DNA from: a virus | Lineage: Duplodnaviria; Caudoviricetes | Virus record (IMG/VR): IMGVR_UViG_3300029305_001134 | Coordinates: 1 to 64,000 of that record | DNA: 64,000 nt | Reading direction: 5' to 3' (one strand) | In this document: piece after piece, positions 1,275-61,366 of the stretch | How the letters are laid out: the number at the start of each line of letters is the position of its first letter | Numbering within the stretch: the stretch's first letter is position 1 | Notes under the pieces: model-generated | Database searches by the model: none | Seen by the model: the letters and a program-made list of their open reading frames with translations, nothing else | What the model was told of the DNA's origin: nothing | Program-made: the position numbers and the translations under genes

Positions 1275-3695
1275 ATGAGTCAAGCAGAAGATTTATTAAA
1301 TTCTTTAGCGGAGTCAGTAGCGGTGCATGAGCATCCAGTAGTTGATTCCGATTCATATTTCATTATCGATCCTGATACCAGAACCATCACGAATACAGCA
1401 GAAACTAAAAATGTGATAATGCAATATGACCACGATTCCGAGCGATATACATTCGAATTGAAACGATTTATCGAAGCTCACGACATGATGTTGTGTAACG
1501 TGGTCAAAGTTCATTATAACAATATCGATGGAACCACCGGTGAAGAGCATGCTGACGTAGCCGATATTTATGATTTACGCATCAACCCAGATAACACCGG
1601 AACAGTTCTTTGTTCATGGACTATTTCCAGACAGGCTACACAGTTAGCGGGTGTATTGAGTTTCTTGGTTCAGTATATTTGTACAGCACCAGACGGAACT
1701 GTTGTATACGAGTGGCACTCCGATATTTATTCCGATGTAGAAGTCAGAGCTGGTCGCAACAATGGTGAAGCATCTATCATCCCATACAGCGATATTCTCG
1801 AACAGTGGCGAAACCGTTTATTCGGAGCTGGTAATACGGTAATTACCGATATCGCGGCAGCCGCTGAAGCAGAGAAAACATCTATCGAGTTAAAAGGTCA
1901 GGAAACGTTAGCAACAATTCCAGCTGATTATACTACTACGTACAACATGGCCGAAGAAGCTTTACGCCGAAAAGCAGATGCTATCGAATTGGAAGTAGAA
2001 GGTGTTGGTATAACGGTTGATAACGCATCTGATGGGTATTTACTCGGATTAGAAGTATACGGCAAGACTGAACAGAACACTACGAGTGGTGTGCAGTTGT
2101 TGAATATTTCAGAAGATAATTCAACATTAGATCGAGGATTAACGCAAATCGTAGAAAAAGGTGTATGTAGTGTTAGTGGTACCGCATCTTCAACTGGTGG
2201 ATTTAGCTTAACATTACTCGGCACATATACCAATACCAAGGCGTTATTTACATTGGAAGCGGGTACGTATACGGCTACTGATTGTTCTCTGTATTCATTC
2301 GATGGAACCACTCGAAAAGATTATAGAGGTACATTCACATTAGAAGAGCCAACCGATATTACTTGGGTTGCTACTAGATCCTTTGCGAACGGCGAAACAG
2401 TAAAAGAAACAACGTATCCTATGTTGGTATATGGAACTGTAGAACGTCCTTGGGAACCTTATTCTTACGGAAGACCTTCCCCTAGCATGAAATGCGCTCA
2501 GGAAATGGTGAGTATTGAGAATCCACTTGTCGGTATATTTGGTATTAATCTCGCCGATATACAGAACATCGACGTGCACGCAAACCAAACTTTAGAAATT
2601 TCAGAAGATAGCTATACAATAGTTGCTTCTGGCGGTTCAGATAAACCATATACATCATCCACGGTGTCACTGAATGTTGATTTATTGAAGGGTAAAAGAG
2701 TAATACTTAAAGCCGATAGTATTACCAACACCAACACAAATGCCCATGGCGTAGTTCAGTTAAATGTTAAGACTCCATCTGGTAGAATGTATATGCCTAT
2801 TTCAACCTATGCGCTATCAAAGACAATCGATATCCCTAGTGATACCACCGAACTCATATTGTCTGTATATACGAATAATACTGAATCGGCGCTAGCTGAA
2901 GATAACACGAATACTGTAAAAGGTCTTGGTGTATATTTTGTCGACAGCGATTGGAAACCTTATGTTCCAATTCAAACCGCTAAGTTCCCATACGTCTTAC
3001 GAGGCAATAAGATAGACTCTGGTGGTAATTATATTGATTCCACAGGACAGCGATGGGTAGCTGATTATGTTGATTGCGAAAACAAACGAATAGTCAGACG
3101 AATCGGTCTTATGACTTTAGATAGTACGAGAACATATCATATAAACGCTTATAGATTGCAGGAAGGCTTATATGTATTCGGTACTAATTTCAAAACTACC
3201 GATGATTACGAATCACCACTTTACGCTGATAAACTCCAGTATCAATTGTGGGGATATTTAGCAGCAGGCGAAGGTAGAGGAGATAAGATATACAAAGTGT
3301 CAGATGGTATATTCGTTTATTTAGAGGATCAGTCTATTTGTACGGTGGCAGATTTCACGAATTATGTAGGTGAGAATCCGATTGTAGTTCAGTATATTCT
3401 TGGAACTCCAGTATACGAGCCACTTACGGACGAAGAAGTAGCAGCTTATAAAGCTTTACATAGTAATTATTATACGACTACGATTCAAAATGATTCGAAA
3501 GCTCATATGAAAGTTACTTACGCAGCGGACACCGAAATCTTCTTACGAGATAATCAACCAGTTCCAACCGAGGAGCAGGTAAGCGAAAACATTCGAACAT
3601 ATCTCGATGAAAAAGGAGCTCAGTATCCATCTGACGAACATATTAACGAATTGATTCACGCAGCACTGGAGGAATGTTTGAATGGCGTATATTAA
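1275..3695 (+). CDS. fibre/receptor-binding-like virion protein with beta-rich modules
   Basis: 806 aa; BppU-like N-terminus (QYDHDSERYTFE); linker motifs shared with 4506-6857. Confidence 0.7.
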   Translation: MSQAEDLLNSLAESVAVHEHPVVDSDSYFIIDPDTRTITNTAETKNVIMQYDHDSERYTFELKRFIEAHDMMLCNVVKVHYNNIDGTTGEEHADVADIYDLRINPDNTGTVLCSWTISRQATQLAGVLSFLVQYICTAPDGTVVYEWHSDIYSDVEVRAGRNNGEASIIPYSDILEQWRNRLFGAGNTVITDIAAAAEAEKTSIELKGQETLATIPADYTTTYNMAEEALRRKADAIELEVEGVGITVDNASDGYLLGLEVYGKTEQNTTSGVQLLNISEDNSTLDRGLTQIVEKGVCSVSGTASSTGGFSLTLLGTYTNTKALFTLEAGTYTATDCSLYSFDGTTRKDYRGTFTLEEPTDITWVATRSFANGETVKETTYPMLVYGTVERPWEPYSYGRPSPSMKCAQEMVSIENPLVGIFGINLADIQNIDVHANQTLEISEDSYTIVASGGSDKPYTSSTVSLNVDLLKGKRVILKADSITNTNTNAHGVVQLNVKTPSGRMYMPISTYALSKTIDIPSDTTELILSVYTNNTESALAEDNTNTVKGLGVYFVDSDWKPYVPIQTAKFPYVLRGNKIDSGGNYIDSTGQRWVADYVDCENKRIVRRIGLMTLDSTRTYHINAYRLQEGLYVFGTNFKTTDDYESPLYADKLQYQLWGYLAAGEGRGDKIYKVSDGIFVYLEDQSICTVADFTNYVGENPIVVQYILGTPVYEPLTDEEVAAYKALHSNYYTTTIQNDSKAHMKVTYAADTEIFLRDNQPVPTEEQVSENIRTYLDEKGAQYPSDEHINELIHAALEECLNGVY

Positions 3696-4269
3696 ACAAT
3701 TAACAGATATCGCCAATGCTATTCGAACAGTGACTGGTGAATCTGGCAAAATGACTTTAAGTCAAATGGCTAAGAAAATTAAAAAATTAGAAGTCCCAGC
3801 TGATAGTTTTGTGTTGGTTACGGAAGACGGAAACGAATACACCGCGGTAATGACTCACGAAGAAGTGGTTTTAACCGCTATAGCGAATGATATTCGAGAA
3901 GGTACGACTGGACTTACTGTGAATGGTGTGACTAAAGGTACAGCTAAAATCCCGGCTTATCATACTTGGCAGGGAGTCGCTATAATTCCTAACGGTAGTG
4001 ATTTTAAAATCACCAATCGAGATCCCAATATCGATTACCATGATTTTACAGAAATACAAAGCATGATATGTTCATATAATACGAATTTGGCGAATAGCGT
4101 TTCCACGGATAGAGTATCGATTGGTGATAAAGTGTATGCGGTTCAATCTACATCAGCAGTCGCTACGTTAACCAAAAATACAACGAATAAAACAATTGAA
4201 TATGGAATTACGAATACATCTGGTGGCATCCAAGTTATCAGATTCTTTATGTATAAGGAGGTAAAATAA
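3682..4269 (+). CDS. fibre-associated protein
   Basis: LTDIANAIRTVTG..MTLSQMA N-terminus typical of phage fibre proteins; RBS GGAGG. Confidence 0.6.
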   Translation: MAYIKQLTDIANAIRTVTGESGKMTLSQMAKKIKKLEVPADSFVLVTEDGNEYTAVMTHEEVVLTAIANDIREGTTGLTVNGVTKGTAKIPAYHTWQGVAIIPNGSDFKITNRDPNIDYHDFTEIQSMICSYNTNLANSVSTDRVSIGDKVYAVQSTSAVATLTKNTTNKTIEYGITNTSGGIQVIRFFMYKEVK

Positions 4270-4505: not shown

Positions 4506-6857
4506 ATGTCAACTAAGAAATTACAAGTATTCGGCTTAAAAGGCGAAAAAGGTACCGGTATTAAGAAGATCACCCAAACTACCGTTGCGACAGAAGACAA
4601 AGGTAAGAACGTCGTTAATATTGCCCTCGACGACGGAACATCCTATAATGTCGAAATTCAAAATGGTAGTAAGGGATCTATTGACAATATCGATACCACA
4701 TTATCAGTAGAAGGGGTTGCCGCAGAATCCAAAACCACAGGCGATAAATTCTACGAATTAGAAAAAAGAAAAGCCCCAGGAATCGCCCGTTCAATGTCTG
4801 GAAAGAGCATGGTAGCGAAAGACTCCAGTAAGAATCCATTTACAGGCATGAAACTGTTCGGAAAGACCACGCAGAAGAGTACGACTGGGGCGCAGTTGGC
4901 GGAGTTTCCAGATGACGTTTATACGGCGAATGGCGTTACGATCACAATAAAAGACGGAGTAATTACTTGTTCTGGTACGCCAACTGTCGAAAATGGTATC
5001 TTTTTAACAAAATGGGGAAAAGATATCGATTTGAATTTGTTAACTGTAGGGGAGACTTATTACGCATACGGCTTTTGTCAATTAGGTGTTTATATAGGTG
5101 AAGAACTGAAATATATTTCGGGGAGCTTTACATACACAGAGAATGTAAGCCGAATACGTCCTTATATTCAATTGATGGTTGAAACATACACAAATGGTAT
5201 GATTTTATACCCAAGACTTGTAGCGGTAGAAAATGCTAATTTCGAACCCTACACAGGCGGAGCACCAAGCCCATCCGTAGACTACAAGCAGGAGTTGAAA
5301 CATCTGGGCGAGTGGTGGAATTTGTTGAATCTGCCAGATGTGGAAGAGAATACTATTAAAGGTGTTACTTGGAGTTGCAAGAATGGTGTAGTTAGTATAA
5401 AAGGTACTGCAACTGAGGATTTCTCTACAAGGAATAATGGTATTTTTGCCGATATAACTGGATTTAAAGGAACGTATCGTATAAGCGGTGGCGATAACCA
5501 AAAATCTGTATGGGTTATGATTACGTCGGCTGATGGTGTAACTACTTATAAAAGACATGAGTCATTCACGTTAGATGGTTCAGAAAGTTTAGTCCATATT
5601 TATATTCTGATTATTTCTGGTACAACCGTTGACGAAAAAATTTACCCAATGCTCAACTACGGCACAACCGCTCTCCCTTACCGCCCATACAGTGGGGAGA
5701 AAGAGATTAGGGTTGAGGTGTTTGGGGGGAATTTGTTTGATGTAAGGAACGCAAAGACAACAATAGGCGGAGTAACAATAACTGGTAATGGTAATAAGTG
5801 CGTTATTAGTGGAACATGTACTACTGGTAATTGGGTTAATGTACAAAAACAATCCATACCCAAAGGAACATATACAATTAGTGTAGACATTAAAGGAAAT
5901 ACTCCTGAACAAGGTTGGATGTTACAATACAATACAAACGAGTCGAATGCGTCCAATGTTGTTGAGACTAACTTGAGATTTGAAAAAGCATATACTTTTA
6001 CATTAGAAGAAGACGGTTTTGCGCAAGTATTACTCGGTATACAAGTTGGAGAAGTGTATAACTCGGTTGAAATTGAAATTATGCTCAATTACGGTGACAC
6101 AGTCCTCCCATACGAACCCTACAACACCCCACAATCCCTCATCACCCCAGTATCCTCTGGACTCCCAGGCATCCCACTTGGTGCAACCACTCCAGATGCG
6201 ATTGCCAACAGTCCAGTACATATGTCTGGTGTTTGGTGGGATGATGAAGAAGAGCAGTATTACATTGGGGATACCAAGGATTATGAGAGTGGAAAGTATG
6301 TGCAGAGGGTATTTGAGTATGAATTTACGGGAATGGAAACTTTGGGTGGATATAGCACTGGAGAAAATTATTTGCCCATATTTTATCCAGAAAATAAAAC
6401 CATTCAATATTTAAATGGAATGAGTAATATTATGGAAGTTGTTAGAAGTTTCTCTATGATAATGAACAATGACAACACACTATCGTGTGCACAAGGTGGG
6501 ATTGTAATTCACCTAAGCGGAATCAAAGGTGTAGGAGATAATACCTTGTATCCAACAACTAATGAATTGTTAAATGCAGCCAAAAGTAGATTGAAAGAAT
6601 TATCAGACGCAGGAAAGCCTTTGAGAATACTTTATATCCTCGCCACCCCAATCGAAACCGACATTCCAGCCGAGGAAATCGTAGCTTACCAGAAACTCAC
6701 AACCAACTACCCAACCACCACAGTCTTTAACGATTGCGACGCGATGATAGAAGTGGGGTATGTGGCGGATACAGCAAATTACATTGGCCATAACTACGTA
6801 CCATTATCCAAATACACGGAATTGGAAGAACGTATAACCACTTTAGAAAACAAATAA
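4506..6857 (+). CDS. fibre/receptor-binding-like protein, paralog of 1275-3695
   Basis: 783 aa; repeated beta-sandwich modules ending in MLNYG..ALPY.PY; collagen-like GLKGEKG at the N-terminus. Confidence 0.7.
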   Translation: MSTKKLQVFGLKGEKGTGIKKITQTTVATEDKGKNVVNIALDDGTSYNVEIQNGSKGSIDNIDTTLSVEGVAAESKTTGDKFYELEKRKAPGIARSMSGKSMVAKDSSKNPFTGMKLFGKTTQKSTTGAQLAEFPDDVYTANGVTITIKDGVITCSGTPTVENGIFLTKWGKDIDLNLLTVGETYYAYGFCQLGVYIGEELKYISGSFTYTENVSRIRPYIQLMVETYTNGMILYPRLVAVENANFEPYTGGAPSPSVDYKQELKHLGEWWNLLNLPDVEENTIKGVTWSCKNGVVSIKGTATEDFSTRNNGIFADITGFKGTYRISGGDNQKSVWVMITSADGVTTYKRHESFTLDGSESLVHIYILIISGTTVDEKIYPMLNYGTTALPYRPYSGEKEIRVEVFGGNLFDVRNAKTTIGGVTITGNGNKCVISGTCTTGNWVNVQKQSIPKGTYTISVDIKGNTPEQGWMLQYNTNESNASNVVETNLRFEKAYTFTLEEDGFAQVLLGIQVGEVYNSVEIEIMLNYGDTVLPYEPYNTPQSLITPVSSGLPGIPLGATTPDAIANSPVHMSGVWWDDEEEQYYIGDTKDYESGKYVQRVFEYEFTGMETLGGYSTGENYLPIFYPENKTIQYLNGMSNIMEVVRSFSMIMNNDNTLSCAQGGIVIHLSGIKGVGDNTLYPTTNELLNAAKSRLKELSDAGKPLRILYILATPIETDIPAEEIVAYQKLTTNYPTTTVFNDCDAMIEVGYVADTANYIGHNYVPLSKYTELEERITTLENK

Positions 6858-7164: not shown

Positions 7165-7506
7165 ATGGAAAGCATACTGACATCGATTAAGAAACAGTTA
7201 GGTATAACTGAAGAATACACTGTGTTCGACGATCAGATAATCATGCATATTAATTCCACATTCATGGTACTTAATCAGCTTGGTGTCGGACCGCCAGAAG
7301 GATTTTATATCGAAGATGATTATGCTACCTGGTCTGATTATCTCGGTGATCCAGTCAAGCTGCAAATGGTTAAAACTTACATGGGTCACAAGGTAAGACT
7401 CCTTTTCGATCCTCCATCAAGTTCGGCACATATGAACGCTATTACTCAGGTAATTAATGAGTTCGAATGGCGTCTCAATGTTGCGGTAGATCCAACGAAT
7501 AACTAA
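7165..7506 (+). CDS. head-tail connector/adaptor protein
   Basis: SILTSIKKQLGI...FDDQIIMHINS...LLFDPPSSS motif. Confidence 0.7.
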   Translation: MESILTSIKKQLGITEEYTVFDDQIIMHINSTFMVLNQLGVGPPEGFYIEDDYATWSDYLGDPVKLQMVKTYMGHKVRLLFDPPSSSAHMNAITQVINEFEWRLNVAVDPTNN

Positions 7507-7524: not shown

Positions 7525-8640
7525 ATGGAGAACATTACGAATACGTATCCAGACGAGTTACAGCATTATGGTATTCTCGGCATGCAGTGGGGTAAAAGAC
7601 GTTTCCAGAATAAGGATGGTTCTCTTACACCAGAAGGAAAGAAACGTTACGACAAAGATTCAGACGATGAAACTACTACTATCACGATGCAGGTTAAAAA
7701 ATCTGATGCGGATAAGTTTAAGAATGCACATAAGAAGTCTCCCAACGAAATGACTGGTAAGGATTATAAGCAGATGAAGCCTGCCGATATGACAGATGAA
7801 GAGCTTAGAAGAGCTATCGAACGTTCTCGAATGGAGAAAGCGTACGCAGAACTTAATCCCGAACCAGTTTCTAGAGGTAAAGAAATAGTTGATAAAATTA
7901 TTTTCGATAAACTTATTCCTAGTGCAATTGATGCTGGTAAAAACTTCATGGATAAGAAACTTGGTAAGATTATCGACGAAGCTATGAAAGATGCTAAACC
8001 AGAGAGTGAATACGACAAACTTAAGAAGAAGTACGATCTGGAGAAGCTGAAGAAAGACTTGGCTGATCTTGGCAAGCCTAAAGAAGAATCTCTTCAGGAT
8101 GCTTTTAATAAGTATGGTAAAATGGGCGAAAGTATTAAAAAAGCAAGAGATGCTGGTATTCCTATCGACGATGATGTCGTTAAAAACATGACCGGTGTTG
8201 GTCTTAAGTCTAAGAAAAACGACGACACGAAAACAGATTCTAAATCTAAAAACGAGTCTAAATCAGAATCAAAGTCCGAACCTAAAACAGAAACTAAATC
8301 AGAATCAAAGTCCGAACCTAAAACAGAAACTAAATCAGAATCAAAGTCCGAACCTAAAACAGAACCTGAATCCAAACCTAAGTCTGAACCAAAATCGGAA
8401 TCTAAACCAAAAGACGACGATACAGTTTGGTCTGGTAAAGTTGAAGGTAAAGGAACGTCTACTAGTAGTATAAAAGATGAATGGGCGAATGGTAAGAAAT
8501 GGTGGGATAACAGTAACGTGACTGAGACTGTTTGGTTTGAGTCCGATTACAGCGATTTTGTCAATAACAGAACAACTCAATCCTATATTTCATCTGGACA
8601 ATCTTATGCTACAGCTTTCTTAGAAGACCATTCGAGGTAG
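7525..8640 (+). CDS. LxH-YG-x-GMxWG family protein with low-complexity KSE repeats
   Basis: ELQHYGILGMQWGKRRFQNKDGSLTPEGKKRY N-terminus. Confidence 0.8.
   Translation: MENITNTYPDELQHYGILGMQWGKRRFQNKDGSLTPEGKKRYDKDSDDETTTITMQVKKSDADKFKNAHKKSPNEMTGKDYKQMKPADMTDEELRRAIERSRMEKAYAELNPEPVSRGKEIVDKIIFDKLIPSAIDAGKNFMDKKLGKIIDEAMKDAKPESEYDKLKKKYDLEKLKKDLADLGKPKEESLQDAFNKYGKMGESIKKARDAGIPIDDDVVKNMTGVGLKSKKNDDTKTDSKSKNESKSESKSEPKTETKSESKSEPKTETKSESKSEPKTEPESKPKSEPKSESKPKDDDTVWSGKVEGKGTSTSSIKDEWANGKKWWDNSNVTETVWFESDYSDFVNNRTTQSYISSGQSYATAFLEDHSR
8258..8364 (+). repeat. 36-bp tandem repeat x3 (KSESKSEPKTET)
   Basis: CTAAATCAGAATCAAAGTCCGAACCTAAAACAGAAA units at 8258, 8294 and 8330. Confidence 0.95.
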
Positions 8641-8650
8641 GTGACACAAC

Positions 8651-10417
8651 ATGGCGTTAAGCAACACAGCAACCCCTAAGTATTATGGAAGATTCAGAGA
8701 TGCTGTAATGCGAGGGGAAATCCCAGTTAATGAAGAAATCGCCCTAGAAATGAATCGAATAGACGAATTAATTGATAACCCTGGAATTTGGTATGACGAC
8801 CAAGCGATTCAGGGTTTTATTAATTACTGCGAGAATGAGTTAACACTAACAGACGGTGAAAACTTACATCTACTCGATTCATTTAAACTTTGGGCTGAAC
8901 AAATATTCGGTTGGTATTATTTCGTAGAGCGATCTGTATACCAGCCAAACCCTGATGGACACGGTGGTCGATATGTTACAAAGAAGATTAAGAAACGTTT
9001 GGTGAATAAACAATACTTAATCGTGGCTCGTGGTGCGGCAAAATCAATGTATGCATCTTGTATTCAGAGTTTCTTCCTAAACGTAGACACCTCGACCACC
9101 CATCAAATCACTACAGCTCCGACCATGAAACAGGCCGAAGAAGTAATGTCACCTATTCGAACAAGTATTACACGTTCTAGAGGACCACTCTTTCAGTTCC
9201 TCACAGAAGGTTCGTTACAAAACACTACTGGACCGAAAGCTAATCGAGTTAAATTGGCTTCTACTAAAGTCGGTATTCAGAATTTTCTGACAGGTTCCGT
9301 ACTCGAAGTAAGACCTATGTCAATCGACAAACTTCAGGGTCTTCGAGTTAAAGTAGCGACAATTGACGAATGGCTTTCTGGTGATATCAGAGAGGACGTT
9401 GTTGGTGCTATCGAACAGGGTGCAGCGAAAGAACAAGGTAGTGCTGAAAACAACGATTACCTTATTGTAGCGATTAGTTCAGAAGGTACCGTTCGTAATG
9501 GTAGCGGCGATACAATCAAAATGGAGTTAATGAAGATTCTCAAAGGCGAGTATAAAAATCCTCATACTTCGATTTGGTGGTATAAGCTCGATTCCATTGA
9601 CGAAATTAATGAACCTGACAAATGGCGTAAAGCTAACCCAAATCTCGGACTTACAGTATCATACGATACTTATCATGTTGACGTTGAAAGAGCAGAGCAA
9701 CATCCAGCGGCTCGTAATGATATTTTGGCAAAACGATTTGGTATACCTATGGAAGGTTATACATACTACTTCACATACGAAGAAACATTACCTCAACAGA
9801 AGAAACGTGACTACTGGAAGATGACTTGTGCGATGGGTGCGGACTTATCCCAAGGTGATGACTTCTGTTCATTCACGTTCTTATTCCCATTACGAGATGG
9901 ATGTTTTGGTGTTAAAACTAGAAACTATATTTCGGAAACTACTTTACTTAAATTACCATCAGCTATGCGTAGTAAATACGACGAGTTTATGAAAGAAGGT
10001 AGTTTAATAGTAATGAACGGAACCATTCTCGATATGATGGAAGTTTACGAGGATTTGGACGAGTATATTATCAACTGTGGTTATGATGTACAAGCATTCG
10101 GTTATGACCCTTACGGTGCAAAAGCTTTTGTCGAAAGATGGGAGTTGGAAAACGGACCATTTGGTATTGTTAAGGTTCCACAGGGTTCTAGAACTGAATC
10201 TATCCCTCTTGGTGAATTAAAGAAATTGTCCGAAGAGAGAATGCTTCTATTCGATGAGGAAATTATGTCCTTTGCGATGGGTAACTGTATCGTTATGGAA
10301 GACACAAATGGAAACAGAAAACTATTAAAGAAACGCTATGAGGCAAAGATTGACCCAGTTGCCAGTCTTATGGATGCATTTATAGCGTATAAACAGAATA
10401 GAGAGGCTTTTGATTAA
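8651..10417 (+). CDS. terL: terminase large subunit
   Basis: Walker A-like VARGAAKS, Walker B ATIDE, nuclease GADLSQGDD and KIDPVASLMDA. Confidence 0.93.
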   Translation: MALSNTATPKYYGRFRDAVMRGEIPVNEEIALEMNRIDELIDNPGIWYDDQAIQGFINYCENELTLTDGENLHLLDSFKLWAEQIFGWYYFVERSVYQPNPDGHGGRYVTKKIKKRLVNKQYLIVARGAAKSMYASCIQSFFLNVDTSTTHQITTAPTMKQAEEVMSPIRTSITRSRGPLFQFLTEGSLQNTTGPKANRVKLASTKVGIQNFLTGSVLEVRPMSIDKLQGLRVKVATIDEWLSGDIREDVVGAIEQGAAKEQGSAENNDYLIVAISSEGTVRNGSGDTIKMELMKILKGEYKNPHTSIWWYKLDSIDEINEPDKWRKANPNLGLTVSYDTYHVDVERAEQHPAARNDILAKRFGIPMEGYTYYFTYEETLPQQKKRDYWKMTCAMGADLSQGDDFCSFTFLFPLRDGCFGVKTRNYISETTLLKLPSAMRSKYDEFMKEGSLIVMNGTILDMMEVYEDLDEYIINCGYDVQAFGYDPYGAKAFVERWELENGPFGIVKVPQGSRTESIPLGELKKLSEERMLLFDEEIMSFAMGNCIVMEDTNGNRKLLKKRYEAKIDPVASLMDAFIAYKQNREAFD

Positions 10418-10437
10418 GAACCAGGAGGTGATTCAAA

Positions 10438-10992
10438 ATGGAATATTACAACGAAGATTATCTCATGCATTATGGCGTCCTCGGAATGAAATGGGGAGTT
10501 CGTAGAGCATTGCATAAATCCGAACGTAATAAAGACTTGAATATTAAAGCCTTAGATTACGATAAGAAATCAGCAAAGTATACTCGCAAATCCGAAAAGA
10601 TTCATGCTGAAGAAGATATCGGTAAAGCGAATAAAAAAGCTAAGAAAGCTGCTACTTATGAAGTTAGAGCTGCAAAGAAACAGAAGAAAGCGGAAAAGTC
10701 CGACAACGAATTGTCTCGTGCAATGTATACAAAGAAAGCTGAAAACTATAAGTATAAAGCGGCTAAAGCACAGCTGGAAGCCAACCGAATCGCAAAGACA
10801 GAAGGTTATAGCGGTAAGGCTATGAAATATTCCGTTAAATCAGATAAGGTGGCGATTAAGGCTGCTAAAGTCAGAAAGAAAATGGCGACCAACGAAGCGT
10901 ATATCGAAAAGATGAAACAGCGAGTATCCGAAATGTCTCCAGAAGATAGACGCGCAGGAAAAGAATACATCGATAGATTGATGAGTGCTTAG
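10438..10992 (+). CDS. LxH-YG-x-GMKWG family protein, very basic (Lys/Ala-rich)
   Basis: YLMHYGVLGMKWGVRR N-terminus. Confidence 0.8.
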   Translation: MEYYNEDYLMHYGVLGMKWGVRRALHKSERNKDLNIKALDYDKKSAKYTRKSEKIHAEEDIGKANKKAKKAATYEVRAAKKQKKAEKSDNELSRAMYTKKAENYKYKAAKAQLEANRIAKTEGYSGKAMKYSVKSDKVAIKAAKVRKKMATNEAYIEKMKQRVSEMSPEDRRAGKEYIDRLMSA

Positions 10993-11004
10993 GAGGTGTG
11001 ATAC

Positions 11005-11652
11005 TTGCATGAATATTACACAGTAACCCCTCACTCAGATGAGCTCTATCACTGGGGCGTAAAAGGTATGAAGTGGGGTGTTAGAAGATATCAGAACAAA
11101 GACGGATCACTTACTGATGCGGGGAAGAAACGCGCCGAATCATACAGACAAAAAGAATTATCGAGATTGGATAAAACATACGATACATCTCGACTCGATA
11201 AGCGTATACATAAAACTGCTCAGAAAATTAGTGACAGAATGCCAGATTCAACACCTGATGACAAACGCTACAACAAGTTGGTGGACAAAGCGAAGCGAGA
11301 TTCTTTCACATATTACTATAAACAAGGTATGAAAGCGGTTGAAACTAGCAGATTAAACAATATGACTTTGAAACAGATCGACACCGAACGTAAAAATATA
11401 GGTGCTGTTAAGGCTGCCAATGTTTTATCTATAGTAGGCGGTAGTACTATGGCTGCTATAGGCGGTTTCGGTTATATACGAACTGTAGATACAACGTCGT
11501 ACAAAACTAATTCGAGAGTTACAGACAACGATCGAGCTAGGGTTGTTAGTGATGCTCGCGTAGAATCAAGCGGAGATGTCGAATCGATGCTGGAAACAGG
11601 ATTCAACAATATAGGTAGAAAGAACCCACGAAAATGGGAGAGACCAACGTGA
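11005..11652 (+). CDS. LxH-WG-x-GMKWG family protein
   Basis: ELYHWGVKGMKWGVRRYQNKDGSLTDAGKKR; TTG start after AGGAGGTG. Confidence 0.78.
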   Translation: MHEYYTVTPHSDELYHWGVKGMKWGVRRYQNKDGSLTDAGKKRAESYRQKELSRLDKTYDTSRLDKRIHKTAQKISDRMPDSTPDDKRYNKLVDKAKRDSFTYYYKQGMKAVETSRLNNMTLKQIDTERKNIGAVKAANVLSIVGGSTMAAIGGFGYIRTVDTTSYKTNSRVTDNDRARVVSDARVESSGDVESMLETGFNNIGRKNPRKWERPT

Positions 11653-11675
11653 GAGTATAGGAGGTAAAATTCAAA

Positions 11676-12938
11676 ATGGGATTTAGAGATAGACTTCAGC
11701 ACGCCTGGTCAGCCTTTATGAATAAAGATCCAACATATGGTTATCGCCGTGATATTGGTATTAGTTATTCTAGACGTCCAGATAGAACTAGATTGTCGGG
11801 TGGAAATGAACGATCCATTATTACGGCATTATATAATCGAATAGCTGTTGACGTGGCAGCACTTGATATTGTTCACTGCAAACTCGATGAGAACGGGCAG
11901 TTCCTAAAAAGAATGAATTCCGATCTTAACAACTGTCTTAATTTAGAAGCTAACTTAGACCAAACAGGACGAGCTTTTATGCAGGACGTTGTTATATCGA
12001 TGTTAGATGAAGGCTGTGTGGCGATCGTACCGGTTGATACTGATATTGACCCAACAGTCTCAGATTCATATAAGATTTTATCCATGCGTACAGGTAAGAT
12101 TGTCGAATGGTATCCTAAGCACGTACGATTGAGTGTATATAACGAACGTACTGCTAAGAAGGAAGAAATCATTATGCCTAAAGATAAGGTTGCGATTATT
12201 GAAAACCCATTATATTCAGTAATCAACGAACCAAACTCTACGGTACAGCGATTGATTCGAAAATTAAATCTCCTGGACGTTATTGATGAACAAAGTGGTG
12301 CTGGTAAATTGGATTTAATTATTCAGTTACCTTATGTTATAAAGTCTGAAGCTCGCCGTACTCAGGCAGAACAGAGACGAAAAGACATAGAAATGCAGTT
12401 AGCAGGTTCCAAGTATGGTATCGCTTACACCGACGGAACAGAGCGAATAACTCAGTTAAACCGTTCAGTAGACAATAACCTTATGAAGCAGATCGAGTAT
12501 TTGACTAATATGGTTTACAGTCAGTTAGGTATCACTCAATCTATTCTCGATGGTACAGCGGATGAACAAACTCAGCTTAACTATCAGACTAGAACTATCG
12601 AACCTATTATCTCAGCAATCGTGGATGAAATGAAGAGAAAGTTCTTAACAAAGACTGCGAGATCTCAGTTACAGACAATTACGTTCTTCCGAGATCCGTT
12701 CAAGCTTGTACCAGTTGGTAATATTGCCGAGATTGCGGACAAACTTACTCGTAATAAGATTCTTACTGCGAATGAGGTACGTCAGATTATCGGTATGAGA
12801 CCTTCCGAAGATCCAGATGCTGATAGATTGAAGAATGCTAACATTGCAGAATCTAAACAACAGGTACCACCAAGTGATAAATCACAAGAAACAGATGTAA
12901 CACAGCAACAGATGGAGGAAAATCAAAATGGCGAATGA
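11676..12938 (+). CDS. portal protein
   Basis: 420 aa between terL and protease; HK97-type portal features (IAVDVAAL..., ILTANEVRQIIG). Confidence 0.9.
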   Translation: MGFRDRLQHAWSAFMNKDPTYGYRRDIGISYSRRPDRTRLSGGNERSIITALYNRIAVDVAALDIVHCKLDENGQFLKRMNSDLNNCLNLEANLDQTGRAFMQDVVISMLDEGCVAIVPVDTDIDPTVSDSYKILSMRTGKIVEWYPKHVRLSVYNERTAKKEEIIMPKDKVAIIENPLYSVINEPNSTVQRLIRKLNLLDVIDEQSGAGKLDLIIQLPYVIKSEARRTQAEQRRKDIEMQLAGSKYGIAYTDGTERITQLNRSVDNNLMKQIEYLTNMVYSQLGITQSILDGTADEQTQLNYQTRTIEPIISAIVDEMKRKFLTKTARSQLQTITFFRDPFKLVPVGNIAEIADKLTRNKILTANEVRQIIGMRPSEDPDADRLKNANIAESKQQVPPSDKSQETDVTQQQMEENQNGE

Positions 12939-14811
12939 ATTTGATTTCAGTGGCTATGCTACGCGTAATGATTTACTCTGCGGTGACGGTCGAATCATTC
13001 GAAAGAATGCTTTTATAAATGACGATGGACAGACAGTACCAATGGTATGGAATCACGATCATACTAAACCAGACGCTGTACTCGGTCATGCATTACTTGA
13101 AAATAGAGACGATGGGGTTTACGCATATTGTAAATTCAACGATACCGAAGCTGGCCAGAATGCTAAGAAATTGGTTGAACACGGCGACGTGCGATCACTT
13201 TCAATATATGCAAACAAACTTAAACAGAGAGGTAATGAAGTAATCCACGGTATTATTCGTGAACTTAGTTTAGTATTGGCTGGAGCTAATCCAGGGGCAT
13301 ATGTCGATTTCGTTATGGCTCACAGCGATGATGAAAACGGCGATGGCGTATTTGCTAACTATGACGAAAATGCTCTCGTACTCTACCACTCTGATGACTC
13401 TGAAAAGAAAGGAGACACAAAAGTGGCAGAGGAAACAAAGAAACCAGAAGCCGAAAAAGGTAACGAGAAAACAATTAAAGAAATGTTCGAAGCATTTACA
13501 CCAGAACAGAAAGAAGTTGTATACGCCTTGATCGGTTATGCGGTAGAAGACGCTACTAAAGGTAAGAAAGAAGAAAAAGAAGTTAAGTATTCCGATGATA
13601 ATGCTTCAGATAGTGAAAAAACTATTAAAGAATTATTCGACGCGTTCACACCTGAACAGAAAGATGTCGTATATTTTATGATCGGCGAAGCGCTTAAACA
13701 TAATGAAGAATCTGATGAAGATGAAGAAAATGAAGGAGGAAATGCTGATATGAAACAGAACGCATTTGAACAGAACGAAAACCAGACTAACGACGTACTT
13801 AGCCATTCCGAAATGAAAGCTATTTTCGAAGATGCAAAACGTTGTGGTTCTCTGAAAGAAGCTGTATTAGCACATGGTATCGAGGAAATTGAATTGCTGT
13901 TCCCAGACCATAAAAAACTGAATAACGAACCAGGATTCATCAAACGTGATGACGATTGGGTAGCTAAAGTATTGGGTGGAGTTCATCACACACCATTCTC
14001 TAGAATTAAAACTGTATTTGCTGACATCACAGCAGCACAGGCTAGAGCTAAAGGTTACCAGAAAGGAAATCTGAAAGTTGAAGAAGTATTCAAACTGTTG
14101 AAACGTGTTACAAATCCAACAACTGTTTACAAGAAACAGGCTCTGGATCGTGACGACATTCTGGATATTACAGACTTCAACATCATTCCATGGCTGAAAA
14201 GCGAATTGCGTATGATGCTGAATGAGGAATTGGCTCGTGCTTTCCTGATTGGTGATGGAAGAGATCCAGTAGAAGAAGCTAACGACAAAATCGACGAAGA
14301 ATGTATCAGACCAATCTGGAAGATGGAAGAACTGTTTACAGTTAAAGTTCCAATTAAAGTTTCTGCGGCAGCTACAGCTGATGAAAGAGCTAAAGCATTT
14401 ATCAGAGCTTGTATCAAATCCAGAAAAGAATACAAAGGTTCTGGTAACCCAGCTATGTTTATGTCCGAAGATATGCTGACAGACTGTCTGTTAGTTGAAG
14501 ACGTAAACGGTCGCGTTATCTACGATACAGTAGCTAAATTGGCTGCTACTCTGCGTGTATCCGAAATCATTCCAGTTCCAGTAATGGAAGGACTGACAAG
14601 AACAGACGATGACGGCAAGACATTCGAATTGGCTGCTATCTACGTAAACCTGAAAGACTATAACGTAGGTACAGACAAAGGTGGCGAAATTAACACATTC
14701 GACGATTTCGATATCGACTACAACAAACAGAAATACCTGATGGAAACACGTTGCTCCGGTACTCTGGTTAAACCACATTCCGCTGTAGCTCTGGAATTCG
14801 TTGTAGAATAA
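12928..14811 (+). CDS. prohead protease-scaffold-major capsid fusion (HK97 type)
   Basis: FSGYAT...VWNHDH...SLSI...ELSLV..GANP protease; acidic linker; C-terminal capsid domain; internal RBS+starts at 13423 and 13750. Confidence 0.9.
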   Translation: MANEFDFSGYATRNDLLCGDGRIIRKNAFINDDGQTVPMVWNHDHTKPDAVLGHALLENRDDGVYAYCKFNDTEAGQNAKKLVEHGDVRSLSIYANKLKQRGNEVIHGIIRELSLVLAGANPGAYVDFVMAHSDDENGDGVFANYDENALVLYHSDDSEKKGDTKVAEETKKPEAEKGNEKTIKEMFEAFTPEQKEVVYALIGYAVEDATKGKKEEKEVKYSDDNASDSEKTIKELFDAFTPEQKDVVYFMIGEALKHNEESDEDEENEGGNADMKQNAFEQNENQTNDVLSHSEMKAIFEDAKRCGSLKEAVLAHGIEEIELLFPDHKKLNNEPGFIKRDDDWVAKVLGGVHHTPFSRIKTVFADITAAQARAKGYQKGNLKVEEVFKLLKRVTNPTTVYKKQALDRDDILDITDFNIIPWLKSELRMMLNEELARAFLIGDGRDPVEEANDKIDEECIRPIWKMEELFTVKVPIKVSAAATADERAKAFIRACIKSRKEYKGSGNPAMFMSEDMLTDCLLVEDVNGRVIYDTVAKLAATLRVSEIIPVPVMEGLTRTDDDGKTFELAAIYVNLKDYNVGTDKGGEINTFDDFDIDYNKQKYLMETRCSGTLVKPHSAVALEFVVE

Positions 14812-17193: not shown

Positions 17194-18231
17194 ATGGTTA
17201 AAAGAAAAATTTGTCTTGATGCTGGACATTATGGAAAATACAACCAGAGTCCAGCTAATAGCGCATATTTCGAGTCTGTAATGAACTGGAAATTACATAA
17301 CTTATTGAAAGATGAGTTGGAAACATACGGATTCGAAGTTATCACAACAAGAAGTAGTCAGGCTAAAGACCTGAGTTTATATAGTCGTGGAGCAAAATCA
17401 AAGGGATGTGATTTGTTCTTATCTATTCATTCCAATGCAGTTGGTTCTGGAGTGAACGAGAAAGTTGATTATCCTGTAGTTTATGTACCGTTAAGTGGTA
17501 ATGGTGACGCACTAGGTCAGAGACTTGCTGATTGTATTGCGGACACTATGGACACTGACCAGCCAGGACGAATTGCTAAGAGAAAGAGTGAGAAAACTGG
17601 TGGAGAGTATTATGGTGTAATCCGTGGTGCGGTAGGCGTTGGAACAATCGGTATGATTCTCGAACATAGTTTCCACACAAATACTCGCTCTACAAATTGG
17701 TTGCTTAAGAATTCCAATCTGGAGAAATTGGCAAAAGCAGAAGCTAAAGTAATTGCTGATTATTTCAAAATGGAAAAAGTGACAGCATCTGCTCCAGTTA
17801 CTGAGAAGAACGAAACAACAGTATATCCTAAAGCTCCATTCGCAGTAAAAGTGTTAGTGAGCGATTTGAATTATCGTTCAGAACCATCAATGGACGGTGA
17901 TGTATTAGGTGTTACTAGTAAAGGTACATTCACTATCGTTCTGGTAGACGGTAACTGGGGTAAACTCAAATCTGGTAAAGGTTGGATCTATCTTGGTAAT
18001 CCAGAATATTGTACGATCGTTAACACTCTTCCATTTAATGTCAAAGTCGAAATCGACGATCTGAATATTCGTACAGGCCCAGGAACAAATTATGTGAAAA
18101 CAGGCGAATGCACTGGAAAAGGTAAATTCACAATTACAGAAATTAAAGAAGGTAAAGGTTCCGACACTGGTTGGGGTAAACTCAAATCTGGTGCTGGATG
18201 GATTTCTCTGGATTACACAAAACGTGTATAA
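17194..18231 (+). CDS. endolysin: N-acetylmuramoyl-L-alanine amidase (Amidase_3) with two SH3b-like domains
   Basis: CLDAGH...E...LSIHSNA...ILEHSFH; LNYRSEPS/LNIRTGPG...WGKLKSG repeats. Confidence 0.9.
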   Translation: MVKRKICLDAGHYGKYNQSPANSAYFESVMNWKLHNLLKDELETYGFEVITTRSSQAKDLSLYSRGAKSKGCDLFLSIHSNAVGSGVNEKVDYPVVYVPLSGNGDALGQRLADCIADTMDTDQPGRIAKRKSEKTGGEYYGVIRGAVGVGTIGMILEHSFHTNTRSTNWLLKNSNLEKLAKAEAKVIADYFKMEKVTASAPVTEKNETTVYPKAPFAVKVLVSDLNYRSEPSMDGDVLGVTSKGTFTIVLVDGNWGKLKSGKGWIYLGNPEYCTIVNTLPFNVKVEIDDLNIRTGPGTNYVKTGECTGKGKFTITEIKEGKGSDTGWGKLKSGAGWISLDYTKRV

Positions 18232-39171: not shown

Positions 39172-41022
39172 TTATATTTTCAGATGCATCACGATTTCCA
39201 TGTCATCTTTGTCTGTTTTACGTCTTGTGAGCTTAGTTGTCTTCGAATATATGATTCTGTTTATGATTGATTTCAATGACTCATTCTTTTGTGGTATACT
39301 CATATTGTCGTATTCATTTAAGCAGTCTTCCAATTTGGGGATTGCTTTTTTATATCTAATTAACTTTTCTTCCTCTTCGGTATTTTCGAATTTGGCCAGT
39401 TTACGTTCAATCGAATCAATTTCTTTTTCGATGTCGTTCTTCAACTCGATATAATCATCGTATGATATTTCTTCACGATTTCGAGTACGTAATAAATTCT
39501 TCCGTTCAGTTTTTAATCCAGTCAATTTCTTCTCTAATTTCAAAATGGTTTTGTGCGTATCGTCTCTTTCTTTAATAATTTCCTCTTCATAGTTATCTAC
39601 ATAATATTTAAAATCTTTTAATTCTTCTTTTAGCTGCCTTAATACTTCTTTCTCTAATTTCGGAAGCACGCAAGACACCATATCGCAGTTTTGGTTACTA
39701 CACATGAACGTATCTGCTCCAGGTGGTTTCTCCTCATATGTTAGTAATTGCTTATCGAATTCATCAGTCTCGATATCTAGGAAGAATTTTAACTCGAACC
39801 ATTTTTCGCTGAATAAATCCGTGTAATGTAGCTTCTCAGGATCAGGTCTAAACCAATCATTTATCTTACTACGAGATACTCCGAGAAAATCTGCTATCTG
39901 TTGACTGGTAACACCCTTCTTAGCTCTAGCTTCTCGAATTAATTGGTTGATAGCCACTTTATTAACTTTATATTTTCGTACCCGTTTAATTTCTTTCTTT
40001 CTACGATTCTGTACCCGAACGAGTGAGTAACCGCATTTCTTACAGAACACCAAACCAGCCAAAGGATTCTTTAGTTCTCGATTCCAGCCAGTTTTGTCAG
40101 GCTTATTTTTCCGCAGTCTCTCCTGTGCCATATCCCATTTCTCTTTACTGATAATACCTTCTTGTCTACCTCGAACTAACATATATTCTTCTGGGCTTGG
40201 TCTAAACTTGTGTAACTCTCCGTTTATAAGTTTCTTTACTACTGGTCTTTTACCCCAAGCGAGATCGCCGTAATAAACTTCATTCTTTAAAATATGTCGG
40301 ACCATTTCGTCATTCCATAGTTCAGCTATACGAGGTTTTAATTCGTGCTTGTTCAAATAATTCGCTGTCTCCAGAGTAGATAAACCATCATCAACAAAAG
40401 CTGAGAACAGAGCTTCAACGATTGGTGCTTCATTCTGGTCTTTAATTAACATGAATCCTCTATCGAGTGGCTTACGAGCATAACCAAAAGGAGGAGTGCT
40501 ACCAATCCATTTACCTTCACGTAATGATAATTGTCTACCACGACCTAATATTTCTTTTGTATATTCCAAATATTTATTACCTTGTAGTAATTGAGCTTCG
40601 AATATTTCTTTATCAAATTTGTTATTCAAATCATATGCTTTGGTTATTGTGGCGATTATCGTATTCGTATATTTCAGAATTTGTACAACACGACCACAGT
40701 CTAACATTTCACCACGAGATATACGCTGAGGTTCAATCACGAGTAATACAGAACCTTCTTCCTTCTCTAATCGATGAAACACCTTCTTAATCTCAACACG
40801 ATCGTCTATTGTCTCGCCAGAAACAACTTCACGATAGATATTTTCTTCAGGTATTTTCTCTCCGAATGTTTGTATAGCATATTCTTGAAGAATCGTTTCA
40901 TGTCGGGATAATACTTCTTCAACACTTTCTTTACCTTCCGCACGAGATTTCCTCAGATAGATAATTACTCGTCGTACACTTATTTTTCCTAATTCGTATG
41001 GTGTTATGATATTTAAGCTCAT
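39172..41022 (-). CDS. large serine recombinase (integrase) with an XRE-type HTH inserted in the zinc ribbon
   Basis: YLRKSR catalytic motif, EVVSGE, RISRG, PPFGY, CKKCG; RBS AAAGGAG supports the MSLNII start at 41022. Confidence 0.92.
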   Translation of the reverse strand: MSLNIITPYELGKISVRRVIIYLRKSRAEGKESVEEVLSRHETILQEYAIQTFGEKIPEENIYREVVSGETIDDRVEIKKVFHRLEKEEGSVLLVIEPQRISRGEMLDCGRVVQILKYTNTIIATITKAYDLNNKFDKEIFEAQLLQGNKYLEYTKEILGRGRQLSLREGKWIGSTPPFGYARKPLDRGFMLIKDQNEAPIVEALFSAFVDDGLSTLETANYLNKHELKPRIAELWNDEMVRHILKNEVYYGDLAWGKRPVVKKLINGELHKFRPSPEEYMLVRGRQEGIISKEKWDMAQERLRKNKPDKTGWNRELKNPLAGLVFCKKCGYSLVRVQNRRKKEIKRVRKYKVNKVAINQLIREARAKKGVTSQQIADFLGVSRSKINDWFRPDPEKLHYTDLFSEKWFELKFFLDIETDEFDKQLLTYEEKPPGADTFMCSNQNCDMVSCVLPKLEKEVLRQLKEELKDFKYYVDNYEEEIIKERDDTHKTILKLEKKLTGLKTERKNLLRTRNREEISYDDYIELKNDIEKEIDSIERKLAKFENTEEEEKLIRYKKAIPKLEDCLNEYDNMSIPQKNESLKSIINRIIYSKTTKLTRRKTDKDDMEIVMHLKI

Positions 41023-41130
41023 GGAAAAATTTACTCCTTTTCTTAGATGACTTTTTATATTACGCTTCAAATAGTAAACTTTCATAATTTGCTGAATACT
41101 TACATATCTTTCATCGAGGTGGTTAAAAAC

Positions 41131-41283
41131 ATGAAAATTACAGTTGTCAGAAACGAACCAACGAAGGAAGTCCTTCAAAATATTTATGACGTAATGAACA
41201 GAAATATTAAAAATCCAAAATGTTTTTATACGTCAGAAGAAACTAAAAAATTAAAGAAGGACAAATCCAACGTGTGGCTGTAA
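41131..41283 (+). CDS. 50-aa protein divergent from the integrase
   Basis: RBS GAGGTGG; MKITVVRNEPTKE... Confidence 0.6.
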   Translation: MKITVVRNEPTKEVLQNIYDVMNRNIKNPKCFYTSEETKKLKKDKSNVWL

Positions 41284-41293
41284 TGGCTGCGCG

Positions 41294-41677
41294 TTATTTT
41301 TTAATTTGCTCTCTGACTGATAAGTATAATTTCATGATATTTTCGTATAGGTCTTGTTTCTCTTCTAATGATACTTTGTCATTTTCAAATATTAGTCTAG
41401 CTCGTTCTAATAAATCTACAGTTTCTATTTCATCGGTTTTACATCCAAGTGTCTCGATTGAAACGTTAAAATAATCTGCGAGTATCTTTATTTGATGGAT
41501 ATTTAAGTTCCTTTTACCTGTCTCTAGATTTGATACTTGTCCTCTCGATAACGGTCTTCCTGTTGCTCTATTTCCTAAAACTATTCCTAACTCATCTTGT
41601 GTTATATTTCTCATTTTTCTTAATTGTCTCACCCGACCACCTATTTCTTTTGTATCGAGCGTCTTTTGAATTTGCAT
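41294..41677 (-). CDS. XRE-family HTH repressor without a peptidase domain
   Basis: IGGRVRQLRKMRNITQDELG...VSNLETG...LADYFNVS. Confidence 0.88.
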   Translation of the reverse strand: MQIQKTLDTKEIGGRVRQLRKMRNITQDELGIVLGNRATGRPLSRGQVSNLETGKRNLNIHQIKILADYFNVSIETLGCKTDEIETVDLLERARLIFENDKVSLEEKQDLYENIMKLYLSVREQIKK

Positions 41678-48827: not shown

Positions 48828-48922
48828 GAGAGAAAGATAAGGTAACTATTACCTAGAATGATCGCATTTTAAGAGCTGAGAAAAATGGGAATTGGCGGTA
48901 GCTTCATTCGTATCATTCTCTT
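48828..48922 (+). ncRNA. candidate four-way-junction RNA (~95 nt)
   Basis: closing stem GAGAGAAAGATA/TATCATTCTCTT plus three internal hairpins. Confidence 0.55.
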
Positions 48923-48968
48923 TTTGTTCTTCCTACTTCACAAATCCAACCGAAAGGTGTTGTCACAA

Positions 48969-61365: not shown

Positions 61366-61366
61366 G

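Follow-up and report, generated by a model that had tools for sequence, protein, structure and literature searches.

Three genes of a phage head module, otherwise dissimilar, open with the same short peptide, and the tripeptide Leu-x-His in that peptide recurs in the precursor of the capsid protein encoded downstream. What do the two have in common? The question is raised by a gut phage, the virus record IMGVR_UViG_3300029305_001134 (Duplodnaviria; Caudoviricetes), which is 100,079 bases long, linear according to IMG/VR and 100% complete according to CheckV; the window analysed here comprises its first 64 kb. The three genes lie around the gene of the large terminase subunit (terL), and the capsid precursor is a fusion of a prohead protease of the S78 family, an acidic spacer and the major capsid protein. 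The answer favoured here, to which we assign a probability of about 0.6, is that the protease cuts after histidine and that the common peptide, DUF7211 of Pfam, marks proteins located inside the head and probably injected.

The N-termini in question read MENITNTYPDELQH-YGILGMQWG in protein A, MEYYNEDYLMH-YGVLGMKWG in protein B and ...SDELYH-WGVKGMKWG in protein C, whose TTG start codon is preceded at a distance of 6 nt by a strong Shine-Dalgarno sequence (AGGAGGTG). The acidic leader, the LxH and the basic motif that the initial annotation had seen on three genes around terL are thus found in the expected places, and what it called a "conserved basic motif" is already listed in Pfam as a domain without assigned function, DUF7211 (PF23847), a profile of 25 positions with a gathering score of 27 bits, which proteins A, B and C exceed with 34.3, 43.5 and 42.0 bits, respectively. 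When all six frames of the 64 kb are scanned for G[MLIV]xWG, only these three places emerge, as they do in a DUF7211 search of the whole contig, while none of 14 control genomes gives a match. The net charge of each leader is -3, and that of the part after the histidine is +3 in A, +25 in B and +17 in C. Beyond the tag, A and C have a 15-residue extension in common and BLASTP finds nothing else common to the three proteins, in agreement with the earlier description of their C-terminal parts as unrelated cargo. The genes of the head module are arranged as follows.

7165-7506, + strand: connector protein (PF24829)
7525-8640, + strand: DUF7211 protein A, 371 amino acids (aa), directly 5' of terL (PF23847, 34.3 bits)
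8651-10417, + strand: large terminase subunit, flanked by tag genes (TerL_nuclease, 5.9e-34; phrog_9, 7.5e-108)
10438-10992, + strand: DUF7211 protein B, 184 aa (PF23847, 43.5 bits)
11005-11652, + strand: DUF7211 protein C, 215 aa, TTG start (PF23847, 42.0 bits)
11676-12938, + strand: portal protein (Phage_portal of Pfam)
12928-14811, + strand: fusion of protease, spacer and capsid protein, 627 aa (Pfam, PHROG, Foldseek)
12928-13323, + strand: prohead protease domain of the fusion, residues 1-132, ending in VMAH132 (Peptidase_S78)
13324-13875, + strand: acidic spacer or scaffold-like part of the fusion, residues 133-316 (alignment, AlphaFold2 model, charge)
13876-14811, + strand: major capsid protein domain of the fusion, residues 317-627, with an HK97 fold (Foldseek, phrog_3270)

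The fusion displays the histidine signature several times. Its sites are VMAH132-SDD, VLYH154-SDD, ALKH258-NEE, VLSH293-SE and VLAH316-GIE, and all five histidines of the spacer (residues 126-322) lie in [L/M]-x-H, for which the chance is about 0.14^5, as Leu, Ile and Met account for 14% of spacer residues. The spacer would be cut after H154 (codon 13387-13389), H258 (13699-13701), H293 (13804-13806) and H316 (13873-13875). The window fusion was aligned with 71 distinct homologues of at least 540 residues and 46-70% identity from 80 IMG/VR loci. H132, H293 and H316 are kept in 72 of the 72 sequences and H154 in 66, in each case with Leu, Ile or Met at P3 (two positions ahead of the histidine, P1), while H258 is kept in only 1 of 72, in a stretch where the alignment is unreliable; most homologues have M-K-H|N where the window reads M-K-Q|N. 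Of the LxH domain borders claimed for this protein, therefore, all five exist, although the first is M-x-H in the window (L/I/M in homologues) and ALKH258 is not conserved. The residues at P1'-P2', just after the histidine, are mostly Gly, Ser or Ala followed by Asp or Glu, and neighbouring spacer residues are variable. Over the whole alignment 373 of the 417 spacer histidines (89%) have Leu, Ile or Met at P3, compared with a background of 14% in the spacers, and outside the spacer this holds for 96 of 602 (16%). There are four to seven such sites per fusion protein, and they recur in insertions. A histidine pattern kept in an otherwise drifting stretch looks like a set of cleavage sites, and the alignment strongly supports that [L/I/M]-x-H is under selection as a signal in the precursor's spacer. 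A site of the same kind occurs at the N-terminus of the portal protein, MGFRDRLQH9-AWSAF (11676-11720; His codon 11700-11702); the histidine is kept in 40 of 51 distinct N-termini of portal homologues, 39 of these 40 with Leu, Ile or Met at P3, and the portal may lose about nine residues to the same protease.

The domain structure of the fusion is consistent with such a processing. Residues 7-125 match Peptidase_S78 (MEROPS S78, PF04586; 29.3 bits against a cut-off of 21), and 43 sequences show no variation at H43, H107, S114 and H132; by analogy with HK97 gp4 we take H43 or H45 together with S114 to be the putative catalytic pair. The AlphaFold2 model, built from a 43-row alignment, has a mean predicted local distance difference test score (pLDDT) of 71.9 and a predicted template modelling score of 0.46. 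The protease is folded up to about residue 130 (pLDDT 75-92), and the score falls below 50 from residue 133, the segments below 50 being 133-181, 212-228 and 259-289. In the spacer the model shows helical hairpins at 183-210 and 233-259 (two repeats, EKTIKEMFEAFTPEQKEVVYALIG...) and two short helices at 293-315, and the capsid part, of HK97 fold, is mostly above 85. In this model the histidine sites coincide with the edges of domains or with linkers of low confidence. Spacer segments 133-154 and 155-293 have net charges of -6 and -20. Foldseek matches the capsid part with the capsids of gene transfer agents, HK97 and T5 (probability 1.00, E from 4e-9 to 1e-7) and also with encapsulins; phrog_3270 matches this domain at 8e-221, and the Pfam family Phage_capsid (PF05065) gives 22.8 bits, below its gathering score of 24.2. 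Cutting at the last site would make G317 (GIEEIELLFPD...) the N-terminus of the mature capsid protein, which is proposed here from the alignment and model; phmmer with the fusion returned no match among PDB sequences, which thus offer no solved structure with the mature N-terminus. A complex prediction for the protease (residues 1-135, 43-row alignment) with a 30-residue tag (28-row alignment) scored 0.03 against a mark of 0.32, a value that speaks neither for nor against an interaction. The l5 product of Lactococcus phage c2, considered as a precedent for the cut, was set aside: according to its record it matures from codon 206 by a cut at R205|E206, belongs to another lineage and has no His pattern.

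The tag itself begins with a short acidic leader, which is followed by L-x-H and by (H/Y/W/F)-G-(V/I)-x-G-M-x-W-G-x-R-R, often continued by Y-Q-N-K-D-G-S-L-T. Most leaders have 5-15 residues, with no conservation other than that of (D/N)-E-L-x-H, and the conserved block follows the histidine over about 30 residues. In 215 distinct tag open reading frames (ORFs), P3 is Leu in 201 and Ile in 10, P4 is mostly Glu and P5 Asp or Asn. The tag profile finds 46,847 cluster representatives (E <=0.001) among 1.84 billion. A pattern that requires neither His nor Leu was applied to 260 proteins, almost all with several tags, obtained with the tag profile and in searches for longer forms: essentially all of their 699 tag copies have His at P1, with Leu at P3 in 93% and Ile in 5%, and the 495 internal copies give the same picture. 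That L-x-H is a part of the tag, always carried by DUF7211, is strongly supported by these counts. Folded alone, the tag core (residues 11-25) attains a pLDDT of 54-66 and no confident structure, which fits a linear motif in need of a partner, and the extension R-R-Y-Q-N-K-D-G-S-L-T-x-x-G-K-K-R is modelled as a small hairpin and a helix (pLDDT 84-88).

Behind the tag the proteins are basic and diverse. In 212 of the 215 tag proteins the part after the histidine has a net positive charge (median +16), and 57 have a hydrophobic stretch of 19 residues. Protein A, with a leader of M1-H14 and a predicted cut after His14 (codon 7564-7566), continues with the tag YGILGMQWGKRRFQNKDGSLT and coiled, low-complexity KSE/KTE repeats, and its Atlas model is mostly disordered (pLDDT 0.48). 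In protein B the cut is predicted after His11 (codon 10468-10470), ahead of a mature part rich in Lys and Ala, and phrog_35934, a "virion structural protein", matches its tag. Protein C, with a predicted cut after His16 (codon 11050-11052) and the tag extension RRYQNKDGSLTDAGKKR, has a hydrophobic Gly/Ala-rich stretch near residue 140, whose Kyte-Doolittle value of 1.49 brings it close to the class with 19 hydrophobic residues; Faecalibacterium phage FP_oengus has a homologue of it at the corresponding place. No family or fold matches the bodies of A, B and C in Pfam and PHROG (for A and C also in Atlas), and the look-alikes that Atlas offered for the bodies of A and C were all viral clusters without known function that scored below the threshold.

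Elsewhere the cargo includes enzymes. Of the 157 tag ORFs with 150 aa or more, the 70 longest include three with a glutamine deamidase domain (PF15644) and one with an ADP-ribosyltransferase domain (PF03496), the remaining 66 showing the tag only; among the 120 longer relatives listed, PF15644 occurs in three and GNAT families in 11. Gp013 of Rhodococcus phage ReqiPepy6 has a 2'-5' RNA ligase/2H domain ahead of its tag. In a protein of 623 aa (P0031) the order is tag, unknown domain, tag, GNAT acetyltransferase, tag, unknown domain, and two metagenomic proteins of 1,583 and 1,714 aa (P0003 and P0004) carry at least five tags each and end with a glutamine deamidase domain. The modules of the latter two are separated by short spacers bounded by x-K-H|S and L-x-H, and it looks as if a leader peptide were excised between two histidine sites. 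The spacer ahead of each tag, about 25 residues long, begins after x-K-H|S (e.g. KAKH-SSIGGNMNYIYGNTLVLGDTSYLEH-HG). As each module of a polyprotein is tagged at its border, we think that the block after the histidine would not merely promote entry into the head but would help the cut site to be recognised, or act once the cut is made.

Stray sites seem to be avoided in the proteins that the protease would meet. [LIM]xH occurs 33 times in the mature parts of 202 single-tag proteins, as compared with 51.4+-6.6 in shuffled sequences (5 of 300 shuffles as low), and 12 times in the capsid domains, as compared with 33.7+-5.0 (none of 300 as low), while 383 other ORFs of the same loci show no depletion (340 against 282+-15). 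The depletion, measured against shuffles within each protein, is modest and the sequences are related; it fits selection against stray sites in protease-exposed proteins.

Tag and fusion occur together. A tag is carried by all 51 of the IMG/VR loci that extend at least 5 kb 5' of the fusion, canonical in 41 and solely of a variant form in 10, and by 12 of 29 loci with less upstream DNA, the number of tags per viral locus being one to five. In the opposite direction, 53 of the 70 loci in prokaryote genomes that were found by the tag alone contain a homologue of the fusion. Fourteen of the remaining 17 end less than 4 kb beyond the last tag, another (L165) ends 2.4 kb past the terminase, and in the last two (L115 and L170) the terminase is followed by unrelated genes, so that they look like remnants. 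The co-occurrence across relatives that the initial annotation proposed to examine is thereby borne out, and that tag and fusion form one co-inherited system with variable, sometimes enzymatic, cargo is strongly supported by the distribution of these sequences.

Named phages, actinophages among them, illustrate the variety. In ReqiPepy6 seven consecutive genes, gp015-gp021, each encode DDFLAH-YGVKGMKWG, and gp013, in the position of protein A, has an internal tag; the phage thus has at least seven tagged genes, and their bodies are unrelated. Arthrobacter phage Gordon has tags on gp08-gp11. The annotated start of Gordon gp06 (L176, NC_041952.1, 4280-4825), MKWGKRK, falls inside a tag; translation from an ATG located 19 codons (57 bases) further 5' in the same frame yields MANNNTHDFLSH-YGIKGMKWG, so that gp06 was probably deposited with the wrong start. 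In Lactococcus phage 1706, orf7, located 5' of terL like protein A, carries two tags and is labelled "structural protein" in GenBank.

The ten loci without GMxWG have two head-module ORFs, in the usual places, which open with L-x-H-Y-G-L-P-R-R-S-G-R-Y-K-W-G-S-G, and at one further locus G-Q-K-W-G replaces G-M-K-W-G. A similar peptide is found on an RNA polymerase resembling RNA-dependent RNA polymerases, encoded outside the window at 96,660-99,740 of the contig (1026 aa; phrog_4291, E 0; a DFDGD motif and a C-terminal helix-turn-helix), which opens ...DEELIH-YGMKFRSGRYPYGSGEDPYQH. The polymerase form of the variant, [L/I/M]-x-H-Y-G...R-R-S-G-R-Y-P-W-G-S-G, is present in FP_oengus and in each of the 19 IMG/VR homologues whose N-terminus is complete. 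Virion-packaged RNA polymerases are known from phages of the N4, crAss-like and phiKZ types, and the polymerase encoded here may likewise be packaged in the virion. A bolder reading, which we put forward only tentatively and regard as rather doubtful, is that DUF7211 and the RRSGRYPWGSG variant constitute a general cargo-loading code of a large lineage of siphophages of Gram-positive bacteria. The protease domain, attached to each capsid subunit, would be the receptor that captures tagged proteins as its substrates, and the cut after histidine would release basic proteins, effector enzymes (ADP-ribosyltransferase, deamidase, acetyltransferase and 2H phosphoesterase) and the RNA polymerase in the head, all of which would enter the host together with the DNA. 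In that case the tag could serve as a transferable handle by which chosen proteins are brought into HK97-type capsids.

The narrower reading, that of a histidine-cutting protease and a tag for head-internal proteins, can be put as a sequence of steps. The head would be built from a single precursor comprising a protease of the HK97 gp4 type, an acidic scaffold-like spacer and a capsid protein of HK97 fold, which would assemble into a shell with the protease and the spacer inside. The DUF7211 motif would bring basic proteins into the procapsid and offer the protease the same L-x-H. Once the shell has assembled, the protease would cut after the histidine of [L/I/M]-x-His, free the capsid domain at about G317, chop the spacer into small acidic peptides, remove the short acidic leaders and separate the modules of polyproteins. 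The basic proteins would remain inside with the DNA, and some of the cargo (enzymes, the polymerase, proteins with hydrophobic helices) would be ejected with it into the host. Cleavage, encapsidation and injection of the tag proteins are what we infer from their sequences.

Several observations weigh against this scheme. After the histidine the tags continue with His, Tyr, Trp or Phe and then Gly, and the spacer sites with Gly, Ser, Ala or Asn and then Asp or Glu, so that one protease would need to accept both. In contrast to T4, the tag is conserved beyond the predicted cut, and L-x-H could be a mere part of a docking motif. As the P1 histidine is invariant, covariation of tag and spacer is impossible to see, and the counts over homologues, which are related, are not counts of independent events. 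A conserved L-x-H, VLGH54, occurs inside the protease fold in 68 of 72 sequences, where cleavage is unlikely, and the connector has a conserved I-I-M-H-I-N inside its fold, also present in ReqiPepy6 gp012 and Gordon gp05; the tripeptide alone is therefore insufficient to mark a cut. The sole experimental hint is the label of 1706 orf7, a database annotation. Of the proposal in the initial annotation, a His-specific protease with a modular packaging tag, the selected histidine signal, the co-inheritance of tag and fusion and the variable cargo hold up, while the differing residues after the histidine and the inexactness of the T4 analogy detract from it.

The same observations can be read differently: the spacer is cut after histidine, but DUF7211 is a docking motif that is never cleaved and binds the interior of the shell, the spacer, the portal or the DNA, so that the proteins would be head-internal with their leaders intact. 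The position of the conserved residues, after the histidine and over some 30 residues, agrees with this, as do the aromatic residue and Gly at P1'-P2', unlike the spacer sites, and the lack of a predicted fold of its own in the tag core, as for a linear docking peptide; the motif also seems to us loosely like the cargo-loading peptides of encapsulins in its Gly, hydrophobic and basic residues. We nevertheless consider uncleaved docking unlikely, since it leaves unexplained why P3 and P1 of the tag are those of the spacer in 699 copies, why tags stand at the borders of polyprotein modules and why the leaders are short, acidic and otherwise unconserved.

A quite improbable alternative places the DUF7211 proteins outside the head altogether, in a cytoplasmic role in assembly or packaging (as a substitute for the small terminase, a scaffold helper or a DNA condenser), with an L-x-H that serves destruction or is coincidental. 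Indeed, no small terminase gene was recognised with Pfam or PHROG and protein A occupies its usual place, and very basic proteins could bind DNA outside the head. Against it stand the annotation of 1706 orf7 as a structural protein, the one to five tags per viral locus and the tagged ReqiPepy6 genes, at least seven, with unrelated bodies, as well as the ADP-ribosyltransferase, deamidase and GNAT cargo and the variant tag of the polymerase, which make little sense for packaging helpers. Protein A was itself considered as a small terminase and rejected, as no family match in Pfam or PHROG supports it. That [L/I/M]-x-His is no cleavage signal at all but a structural or metal-binding feature of the lineage, the precursor being cut elsewhere or not at all, draws on the conserved L-x-H within folds (VLGH54 of the protease, I-I-M-H of the connector) and is very improbable indeed, given that 89% of spacer histidines stand in this context in variable, acidic, low-confidence linkers, that the sites vary in number (four to seven) and recur in insertions, and that the protease, with its conserved H43 and S114, is itself part of the precursor and must find sites in it at which the capsid domain is set free.

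The closest functional parallel to a cleaved head-loading tag is phage T4, with its internal proteins IPI-III and Alt and its protease gp21. T4 Alt is an ADP-ribosyltransferase, and the T4 protease cuts after L/I-x-E, i.e. hydrophobic-x-P1. In both systems a short N-terminal peptide is common to otherwise diverse proteins, and one DUF7211 protein has, like Alt, an ADP-ribosyltransferase domain. The internal proteins of T4 are basic, contact DNA and are injected, and the tag proteins of the window are likewise basic. The feature by which a T4-type system is recognised, one site motif in the cargo and in the capsid or scaffold precursor, is also found here, [L/I/M]-x-H being present in the spacer and in every tag. 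However, P1 is Glu in T4 and His here, gp21 is a separate protein whereas the protease of the window, of the S78/HK97 type, is fused to the capsid protein, and the conserved part is the removed leader in T4, while here it follows the predicted cut and would be retained after maturation. No homology to gp21 or to the internal proteins was detected with Pfam and PHROG, the protease matching only S78 and the tag proteins only DUF7211 and unnamed PHROGs. The analogy to T4 drawn at the outset consequently applies to the site motif common to cargo and precursor, and fails in the short, variable leader, in the motif conserved after the cut and in ancestry. According to the accessible part of the source, the T4 capsid-targeting sequence is a short N-terminal peptide on diverse proteins that directs them into the prohead and allows foreign proteins to be encapsidated (PMC3012670).

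A second parallel is offered by the giant phages phiKZ and SPN3US. Gp245 of SPN3US, in the accessible text, cuts after A-x-E with Val at P4 and Ser at P1' and removes N-terminal propeptides, the long ones by repeated cuts (PMC10052503). One protease with a P3-x-P1 motif there processes many head and ejection proteins, and such rules of known prohead proteases provide a precedent for [L/I/M]-x-H. The protease family and P1 are not the same, that part of the source describes no conserved tag that the substrates share, and those phages are myoviruses with 240-kb genomes, in contrast to the siphophages of Gram-positive bacteria considered here. The system in the window thus works like those of T4 and phiKZ/SPN3US but is a member of neither, as protease family, P1 and the conserved side of the cut differ. 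With HK97 it has the protease family and the capsid fold in common, but HK97 loads only its protease and not a set of cargo proteins. In encapsulins, which are among the Foldseek matches of the capsid domain, diverse cargo carries a short linear peptide that attaches to the inner face of a shell of HK97 fold, as the tag may do here; encapsulin cargo peptides are usually C-terminal and uncleaved, and there is no protease in the encapsulin system.

Elsewhere in the window, upstream of the connector, lie ORFs of 806, 195 and 783 aa (1275-3695, 3682-4269 and 4506-6857) without significant matches in Pfam or PHROG, the last with a coiled-coil-like tail at its C-terminal end. Tail genes follow the fusion, and among them, before the tape measure gene, PHROG identifies an endolysin (17194-18231; an amidase with SH3-like C-terminal repeats). 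The G+C content, about 0.40 at first, drops to 0.35 beyond about 36 kb of the window. The opposite strand (39172-41677, - strand) encodes a repressor-like regulator and an integrase of 668 aa (phrog_95), yet the actinophage members of the lineage are described as lytic. Three paralogues of phrog_2152, of unknown function, lie within 7 kb (48885-49754, 50081-50866 and 55202-56158), and a primase-polymerase gene (phrog_4210) is divided into two ORFs (57957-60725 and 61358-62704) interrupted by an HNH endonuclease gene (60730-61365).

Relatives of the fusion are found by tblastn in 246 phage records, and the gene has already been described, as accessible passages of three papers show, in Arthrobacter, Gordonia, Streptomyces, Rhodococcus, Lactococcus 1706-like and Faecalibacterium phages (PMC5513430; 10.1101/2020.01.10.891226; 10.1101/842583). 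Arthrobacter phage ArV2 was considered as a member of the lineage and rejected, its protease, scaffold and capsid protein being separate in the accessible text (PMC4205034). The passages on the fusion are silent on the His sites and the tag, a literature search for DUF7211 found no paper, and neither the His sites, the meaning of the tag nor the link to the polymerase was found in the searchable literature; the fusion gene is therefore known, and these three points are new as far as the search reached. We know of no other prohead protease that cuts after histidine, and the favoured reading, if true, would define one. It would also give a function to DUF7211, a domain that its profile finds in 46,847 protein clusters, and would predict, for many phages of gut, dairy and soil, the proteins that are borne in the head and enter the host, toxin-like enzymes and an RNA polymerase among them. 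Finally, it would offer a short tag with which proteins could be loaded into the capsids of phages.

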